In this document: one piece after another, positions 1-635 of the stretch
Layout of the letters: each line of letters starts with the position of its first letter
Position numbering within the stretch: position 1 is the first letter of the stretch
Source: Escherichia coli
GTDB taxonomy: Bacteria > Pseudomonadota > Gammaproteobacteria > Enterobacterales > Enterobacteriaceae
Reading direction: 5' to 3' (one strand)
DNA length: 635 bases
Assembly: GCF_003334255.1 (NCBI RefSeq)
Contig: NZ_QOWU01000206.1
The notes under the pieces: model-generated
What the model saw: only the letters and a program-made list of their open reading frames with translations
The model's database searches: none
What the model was told of the DNA's origin: nothing
Program-made: the position numbers and the translations under genes

Positions 1-635
1 GTTCTGGCATCGAAGTCTATGGCTTTCCCCAGCTCAACGATTGTGCGTACATCGCGATCGTTGTAGTAACGCCACGGGCAGGGGATCCCCTGCCGTTCGT
101 ATGAACGGCGCAAAATCGTGTTGTCGAAGTTGGCTCCATTTCCCCAAACCTGAACAAAAAATTCACCGGAGTTTTCGTCGATAAATTCTCGCAATTGTAA
201 CAGTGCATCATCTAACGGGATTTCATCGGTCATAATGGCAGATTGCGCTTCGCGTGATTGCTTAAGCCACCATTTAATGGTGTCCCGATCAATGACTCCG
301 CCAGCAGTTTCCAGATCGATAGTCTTACTAAATTCCGGTCCCATATCTCCGGTTTGCGGATCGAAAAATATTGCACCTATTGAGATGATCGGGGCATCAG
401 GATTTTTTCCCATGGTTTCAAGGTCAATCATCAGATGGTGCCACAACCTGCTGGTGGATGTGATAACGTGATGACCGTTCACCGTAATTAAGGGATCTGC
501 CGTCTCGCCAGTTTCACTATCGCTGGCGTGATCCTGAGCGCTGCCAGCATTCTCCTTGTGTGGATGTTCAGCGCCTTCCATTTCCTCCGGATCATCTTCC
601 TGAACTTCAACCTGATACTCTTCATCGAATGTTTC
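1..635 (-). CDS. Partial CDS (5' and 3' ends outside window): acidic low-complexity segment followed by a DnaQ-like DEDD-family 3'-5' exonuclease domain; possibly part of a prophage RecE/exodeoxyribonuclease VIII-like protein (hypothesis)
   Basis: Hand translation of the minus strand in the frame whose codons occupy 635..633 down to 5..3 gives 211 sense codons with no stop. The other two minus frames contain stops (e.g. TAA at 488..490 in the +1 frame). Exo I-like motif MIDLETMG is encoded by 408..431 (D-x-E-T-x-G). Exo II-like motif WGNGANFD is encoded by 123..146 (N-x-x-F-D, cf. RNase T/epsilon H-N-A-x-F-D). The hydrophobic strand [10 protein letters not shown] after Exo I fits the DnaQ fold. 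No good Shine-Dalgarno precedes either in-frame ATG (429..431 and 579..581), consistent with the true start lying beyond 635. Family assignment is from motif recognition only; no search was run. Confidence 0.85.
77..94. repeat. Perfect 18-bp palindrome GGCAGGGGATCCCCTGCC (contains GGATCC and a central GATC) inside the CDS; function unassigned
   Basis: Base-by-base check: positions 77..94 equal their own reverse complement (9 of 9 pairs); symmetry breaks at 76/95. The chance of a 9-pair perfect palindrome somewhere in about 630 positions is roughly 0.002 for random sequence. It encodes R-Q-G-I-P-C-P on the minus strand. No downstream T-tract, so it is not a terminator. Confidence 0.5.

Follow-up and report, generated by a model that had tools for sequence, protein, structure and literature searches.

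RecE (exodeoxyribonuclease VIII), encoded by the Rac prophage of Escherichia coli K-12, is a protein of 866 amino acids (aa). Its N-terminal region, which is long and whose function is unknown, is followed by a linker and by a C-terminal nuclease domain extending from residue 564/602 to residue 866 (PMC11611040). Standalone enzymes of the PF16473 family, such as DexA of phage T4 (Protein Data Bank entry 8KEL), are DEDDh 3'-5' exonucleases of about 180-230 aa. One member, EcD (HREX), a standalone DexA homologue of E. coli, is reported in a 2025 paper to digest DNA containing 5-hydroxymethylcytosine and to protect against T4, and is apparently found outside K-12 laboratory strains (PMC12153337). 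Here, we analyzed a 635-nucleotide (nt) stretch of E. coli DNA (contig NZ_QOWU01000206.1; hereafter, the window), whose minus strand encodes most of such an exonuclease domain. The ATG at positions 429..431, which opens the sequence MIDLETMG, resembles the start of a standalone enzyme. Our results indicate, with a probability of roughly 90%, that this ATG is internal to one long prophage gene, in which a RecE-like N-terminal region is fused to a DEDDh exonuclease.

On the minus strand, a single frame was open through all 635 nt of the window (211 codons); the remaining two frames contained many stops. The best match on an E. coli chromosome (99.7% identity, 2 mismatches; locus L001) placed positions 1..635 on codons 576-786 of one long prophage coding sequence (CDS), with both start and stop outside the window. 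This CDS (L001 3276..5747) comprises 2,472 nt and encodes 823 aa. An earlier sequence-only reading of the window had favored a long fusion protein with a start outside the window, and had proposed that gene calls be compared across related prophages. This comparison bore it out: one long CDS of 820-847 aa was annotated in all 7 of the RefSeq loci inspected (L001, L002, and L088-L092), and the corresponding CDS of phage Evi (79% nucleotide identity) was annotated as 826 aa. The gene order, dicB, ydfD (DUF1482), exonuclease, xis, int, was constant in these seven loci and in phage Evi. Moreover, the match of the 823-aa protein to phrog_2082 spanned 823/823 positions.

Among 5,426 complete genomes of E. 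coli, 4,061 contained at least 80% of the window, which matched ~9,900 places in all and as many as 8 in a single genome; lambdoid and Stx phages also carry the sequence. In most of the scorable IMG/VR copies, the open reading frame (ORF) was intact and had a length of 812-828 aa. Among 91 copies from IMG/VR prophages, RefSeq genomes and phages, the in-frame stop nearest to the methionine encoded at 429..431 (M644), on its upstream side, was 130 codons away. A conserved stop/start junction at this position, which according to the sequence-only reading would indicate a separate gene, was not found among close relatives.

From the N-terminus to the C-terminus, the protein was characterized by a RecE-like N-terminal region, a zinc ribbon, an acidic disordered linker, a variable segment, and an Rv2179c/DexA-like DEDDh exonuclease. 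We relied on NCBIfam, BLASTP and a DNA alignment for the homology to RecE because Pfam did not report PF06630 (Exonuc_VIII) in the full-length protein, although a precomputed table lists it for a relative, P0132. BLASTP aligned residues 262-626 to residues 278-592 of K-12 RecE (40% identity, 7e-64), with a zinc ribbon and an acidic stretch nearly identical to those of RecE. The NCBIfam RecE model NF007259 matched residues 229-626 over model positions 252-603 of 877, with a score of 285 bits against the cut-off of 1269, below what is required of a whole RecE protein.

At the DNA level, nt 1-149 of the window, counted in the sense of the gene, showed 85% identity to K-12 recE; beyond them, the similarity was lost abruptly. 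This break falls at ADP(L/V)I, i.e., at window position ~486 (plus-strand coordinate), L001 ~5150, and ~3650 of the K-12 recE locus (L087), which corresponds to RecE residue ~592, immediately ahead of the PD-(D/E)XK nuclease domain of RecE. From these alignments, we interpret position ~486 as the junction of a nuclease-cassette swap, by which the PD-(D/E)XK nuclease of RecE was replaced by a DEDDh cassette.

The linker (codons 576-625; window 486..635, minus strand) is homologous to residues ~542-591 of K-12 RecE. It contains 28% aspartate and glutamate, with a net charge of -16, and is predicted to be disordered, with a predicted local distance difference test (pLDDT) score below 50 for residues 569-610 of the AlphaFold model. 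It is followed by a pre-domain segment of 18 codons (626-643; window 432..485, minus strand), which belongs to the DEDDh cassette and is absent from RecE. This segment, with a pLDDT of ~70 for residues 620-639, was hypervariable and devoid of a Shine-Dalgarno (SD) sequence; a GHH/GHQ motif within it was shared with distant fused relatives.

Some side observations concern these segments. Just upstream of the window, a zinc-ribbon-like CxxC...CxxC motif, CTACGQTGGGNCPDCG, was present at L001 4926-4973 (residues 551-566), and is shared with K-12 RecE. Two main alleles of the pre-domain segment were observed: SRTCDHL, which was the commonest (72 of the 96 copies), and SRLWHHL (8 of the 96 copies, including the window). 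In addition, shorter ORFs of 255-621 aa were observed in phage vB_EcoM-606R7 (L086, 1804-4247), as well as in L020, L038, L044, L049, L061, L067, L071, L072, and L075. These were split or truncated far upstream, none of them was broken inside the linker, and they are probably decaying prophage copies.

The gene thus shares with recE, besides the homologous N-terminal and central region with its zinc ribbon and acidic linker, the succession of a long N-terminal region, a linker and a C-terminal nuclease (PMC11611040), and an early-left operon position adjoining xis and int. It differs in the nuclease itself, which is a PF16473 DEDDh 3'-5' exonuclease instead of the PD-(D/E)XK 5'-3' nuclease of RecE (residues ~602-866), and in what comes after the gene. 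Whereas recT follows recE in Rac, no recT or bet annealase was found near the gene in the 7 RefSeq loci inspected (L001 3276-7054, L002, and L088-L092), xis and int being located directly after it. A RecET-type role in recombination is therefore doubtful.

PF16473 was the only Pfam domain detected in the protein (residues 641-813; E=5.5e-67; all 177 model positions covered), and it was also recovered from the window alone (E=3.7e-54). The window carries the first 146 residues of this Rv2179c-like/DexA-like domain (residues 641-786; 1..440, minus strand). Model position 1 aligned to residue 641, three residues ahead of M644. T4 DexA (8KEL) was the best match by sequence in the Protein Data Bank, and the pLDDT of the domain was 90-98 in the AlphaFold model. 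Among the catalytic residues, the first two DEDDh acidic residues are encoded by the GAC and GAA codons of D646-L647-E648 (417..425, minus strand; alignments A2 and A4), and the third by the D746 codon in NFD (123..125, minus strand), which corresponds to the invariant D120 of alignment A2; H796 and D801 fall outside the window. D646, E648, D746, and H796 were invariant, and D801 near-invariant, in alignments A2 and A4, where T4 DexA is among the sequences aligned. The domain is expected to be an active two-metal 3'-5' exonuclease. PADLOC returned a weak, generic DEDDh match only (3.8e-05). Two IMG/VR prophage copies (L017 and L021) read MINLETMG, i.e., D646N (window-equivalent positions 423..425), and are probably exonuclease-dead variants.

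The protein shares with the standalone PF16473 enzymes a full-length profile match, the DEDDh residues and a methionine ahead of the first aspartate; however, the standalone enzymes start about four residues before this methionine, at least one of them with an SD of its own (L093), whereas the domain described here forms the C-terminus of an 823-aa protein. EcD belongs to the same exonuclease family, also occurs in E. coli, and was cloned as an ORF starting at the equivalent methionine (MIDTET). It is nevertheless not this gene: the EcD primers encode MIDTET... and ...IPETY, versus MIDLET and ...PSQADF here. K-12 C600 carried recE alone at this locus and no copy of this exonuclease domain. Moreover, D90 of DexA, a tetramer contact, aligned to D718 of the present protein (adjacent to A719), versus an alanine in EcD, in a loop where alignment A4 is unreliable. 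EcD has been studied as a standalone protein, whereas the present gene is a fusion, known here from its sequence; the activity of EcD is, by analogy, only a lead as to what the fused protein may do. No literature pairing Rv2179c with prophages was found.

Ratios of non-synonymous to synonymous substitution rates (dN/dS) were determined by region on 42 unique full-length ORFs of 823 codons. Low values were obtained for the N-terminal region (codons 1-550; 0.19-0.28), for the zinc ribbon (codons 551-575; 0.09), where constraint was strongest within the protein, and for the exonuclease domain (codons 644-823; 0.17). The acidic linker (codons 576-625) gave 0.62, and the pre-domain segment (codons 626-643) 1.22. 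Because codons 1-550, the zinc ribbon and the domain are under selection and the frame is open, the upstream region is genuine coding sequence in the frame of M644, which reaches the linker without a stop.

Fusion of the domain to a long N-terminal part was also the rule among more distant relatives. Most of the representatives whose domains were 55-75% identical were long fusions, of 385-901 aa; one of these, P0132 (848 aa), belongs to a different prophage, in which the genes are arranged in the same order. The linkers of distant fused relatives were unrelated in sequence, yet acidic, with a net charge of -3 to -15 over 64 residues. Together, the selected N-terminal region and these distant fused relatives are the decisive evidence for a single long gene. 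As a side observation, a [Q/E]ME motif, which may be a short linear motif, was present 40-59 residues ahead of the conserved methionine in 9 of the 12 fused proteins compared, including this one (window 576..584; relatives P0131-P0141).

Regarding initiation signals, the coordinates and sequences given by the sequence-only reading for the ATG at 429..431, the 21 nt preceding it, the ATG at 579..581, the GGAGG at 584..588, and the frame open to 635 all proved correct. Its listing of in-frame ATGs was incomplete, since a third one, at 411..413 (minus strand), encodes M650 in MGKNPD, at which some database entries of 174 aa start. The ATG at 579..581 (minus strand) encodes M594, within EEMEG (MEGAEHPH), and is an internal residue rather than a start, being replaced by isoleucine in L088. 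The GGAGG at 584..588 (minus strand), separated from it by a 2-nt spacer, is part of the codons for Pro-Glu-Glu and is not a conserved ribosome-binding site: it was kept in 51 of the 96 copies, the rest having GGAGA or GAAGG. The DNA alignment revealed that K-12 recE also has GGAGG at the same internal position.

The 21 nt preceding the ATG at 429..431, agcaggttgtggcaccatctg, were said to lack an SD, which was supported by the energy of the duplex with the anti-SD sequence: -3.6 kcal/mol, i.e., the 27th percentile among the in-frame codons of the gene. By comparison, this energy was -6.3 kcal/mol at the annotated start, -3.2 to -6.6 kcal/mol for neighboring genes, and +0.4 kcal/mol at M650. 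Among the 96 copies, these 21 nt existed in 15 variants, with non-synonymous changes and SD energies ranging from +1.5 to -7.3 kcal/mol. Thus, a conserved SD at a suitable distance, as expected of a functional internal start, was found at none of M594, M644, or M650. The folding energy of the mRNA around M644 was ordinary (-9.3 kcal/mol, versus -3.5 kcal/mol at the annotated start), no promoter-like site or terminator was found in a scan of L001 4700-5800, and the window gave no Rfam match at E<=1.

The position of M644 is better understood from the standalone members of the family. Methionine occupies the position of M644 in 116 of the 123 family representatives, where it is most often the fifth residue, and was invariant in alignment A2. 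The commonest standalone architecture was MxHxMIDLET, with a start four residues upstream of this methionine; the N-terminus of T4 DexA is MFDFIIDFETMG (aligned as MFDF-IIDFETMG), and seven representatives start exactly at the conserved methionine. The suggestion that M644 coincides with the canonical N-terminus of standalone enzymes was therefore only partly right: the methionine lies near it, but is normally residue 5, the start being located four residues upstream. In the fused genes, the ancestral start position is occupied by tryptophan, cysteine or phenylalanine (tryptophan here). One standalone relative (L093 460-560; 56% identity) has a called start at MIDLETMG; an in-frame ATG located four codons upstream is preceded, at 8 nt, by AAGGA, and this start call is probably four codons too short. 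The same frame also holds, immediately upstream, a small ORF that was not called and that ends in DDDEDEEDDDWDEDDD*.

These results are best explained as follows. Translation would begin with the ATG located at L001 3276, ~1.7 kb upstream of the window, and the ribosome would read, in order, the RecE-like N-terminal region, the zinc ribbon, the linker, the 18-residue variable segment, and the DEDDh domain, with the long protein probably being the only product. The gene arose by module exchange, with the DEDDh cassette taking the place of the 5'-3' PD-(D/E)XK nuclease of RecE. The methionine would be conserved by the exonuclease family for structural reasons, as it lies in the predicted beta-strand 1 (residues 642-649 of the AlphaFold model), two residues before the catalytic D646 and close to E648. 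The ancestors of the domain would have been standalone genes starting four codons earlier, and it is because these ancestral genes began there that M644 resembles a start.

Several points weigh against a single long gene with a single product. Hand inspection covered 7 of several thousand RefSeq loci. The ATG of M644 was retained in 96 of the 96 copies. Standalone members of the family are active enzymes, and EcD, cloned from the equivalent methionine, is reported as active (PMC12153337). In addition, the linker was near-neutral: the dN/dS of the acidic region, which had been proposed as a check of its coding status, was between 0.6 and 0.8, or more precisely 0.62-0.84 (0.84 in 70 unique close sequences), without a third-position excess (38:25:30 changes at the three codon positions). 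No stops were seen in the linker of close relatives, where 2.1 were expected, a difference that is only weakly significant (P(0)=0.12), and the close set showed no indels between codons 576 and 823 from which preservation of the frame could be judged. Since the linker is near-neutral, Ka/Ks is uninformative by itself and cannot decide its coding status. As for the retention of the ATG, it follows from the conservation of the methionine by the protein family (116 of the 123 representatives). We conclude that M644 is an internal, family-conserved methionine and not the start of a separate gene.

The alternative that fits best after this one is that two products are made, i.e., the long protein (~92 kDa) and a DexA-like isoform of ~20 kDa initiated internally at M644 or M650. 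The ATG present in all copies would be compatible with this, as would the location of the methionine, which is at most four residues from the N-terminus of the standalone enzymes, and exactly at it in EcD (primer ATGATTGACACCGAAAC) and in the seven representatives mentioned above. A linker predicted to be disordered would, moreover, leave the domain autonomous. However, the region preceding M644 has no SD and varies between copies, including in amino-acid sequence, there is neither a promoter-like site nor an unusual mRNA structure at the methionine, and its conservation is fully explained by the family. A start at M644 would also remove the first residues of the modeled strand 1, and the true standalone gene of L093 has AAGGA and an ATG four codons further upstream, at a position that encodes Trp, Cys or Phe in the fused genes. 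Internal initiation thus finds no support in the sequence, and we consider such an isoform very unlikely.

A second alternative is that MIDLETMG marks the start of a separate exonuclease gene, the upstream frame being non-coding or belonging to a different gene. It had been anticipated that gene callers may annotate a short protein at this position, and such entries do exist. Entries of 180 aa starting with MIDLETMG were found in clusters P0110, P0117, and P0119, and entries of 174 aa start at M650; among these short entries, WP_305881238.1, WP_305367912.1, WP_244566938.1, WP_244582715.1, WP_251003408.1, WP_420883579.1, and MCZ5339523.1 are not flagged as partial. These unflagged entries, several with RefSeq WP_ accessions, and the near-neutral linker would be in favor of two genes. 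On the other hand, the cluster of the long form has 23,183 members, versus 28, 3, and 3 for the short calls, and the frame was open upstream of all three short calls examined: L003 has an intact ORF of 813 aa, and L096 and L097 have 401 and 337 stop-free codons, respectively, up to the contig edge. Because of this open frame, the three short calls examined are artefacts. In an E. albertii cluster, forms of 807 aa and 180 aa were observed together. With, in addition, a frame free of stops in the 91 copies within 130 codons of M644 on its upstream side, purifying selection on codons 1-575 in this very frame, and a linker that belongs to RecE in K-12, the two-gene reading is already contradicted by the present data and is hardly credible.

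Finally, cleavage of the long protein in its linker, which is long, acidic and predicted to be disordered and hence accessible to proteases, could free an exonuclease domain, as the nuclease domain of RecE is functional by itself (PMC11611040), but this is pure inference from disorder, without evidence of a cleavage site or of a protease, and appears just as far-fetched.

The finding is an ordinary one, on a long gene that is already annotated, and it illustrates a common annotation pitfall. Its value is mostly practical: a few short entries are fragments of the long gene, and when uncharacterised DexA-like exonucleases of E. coli are selected from databases for cloning or for screens of defence, the choice could fall on such a fragment, without its RecE-like part of 640 residues. 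A broader view, which we regard as unlikely, is that the RecE-like front and the linker form a reusable carrier for nuclease cassettes in lambdoid prophages. The DEDDh version, which has no annealase, might then act against phages with modified DNA, in the manner of DexA or EcD, and not as a recombinase, with the free domain possibly released by initiation at M644 or by cleavage of the linker. If this were true, the carrier would bear a PD-(D/E)XK 5'-3' cassette in Rac and a DEDDh 3'-5' cassette in the present gene. The module junction itself offers a useful point of reference when the role of the enigmatic N-terminal region of RecE is considered.

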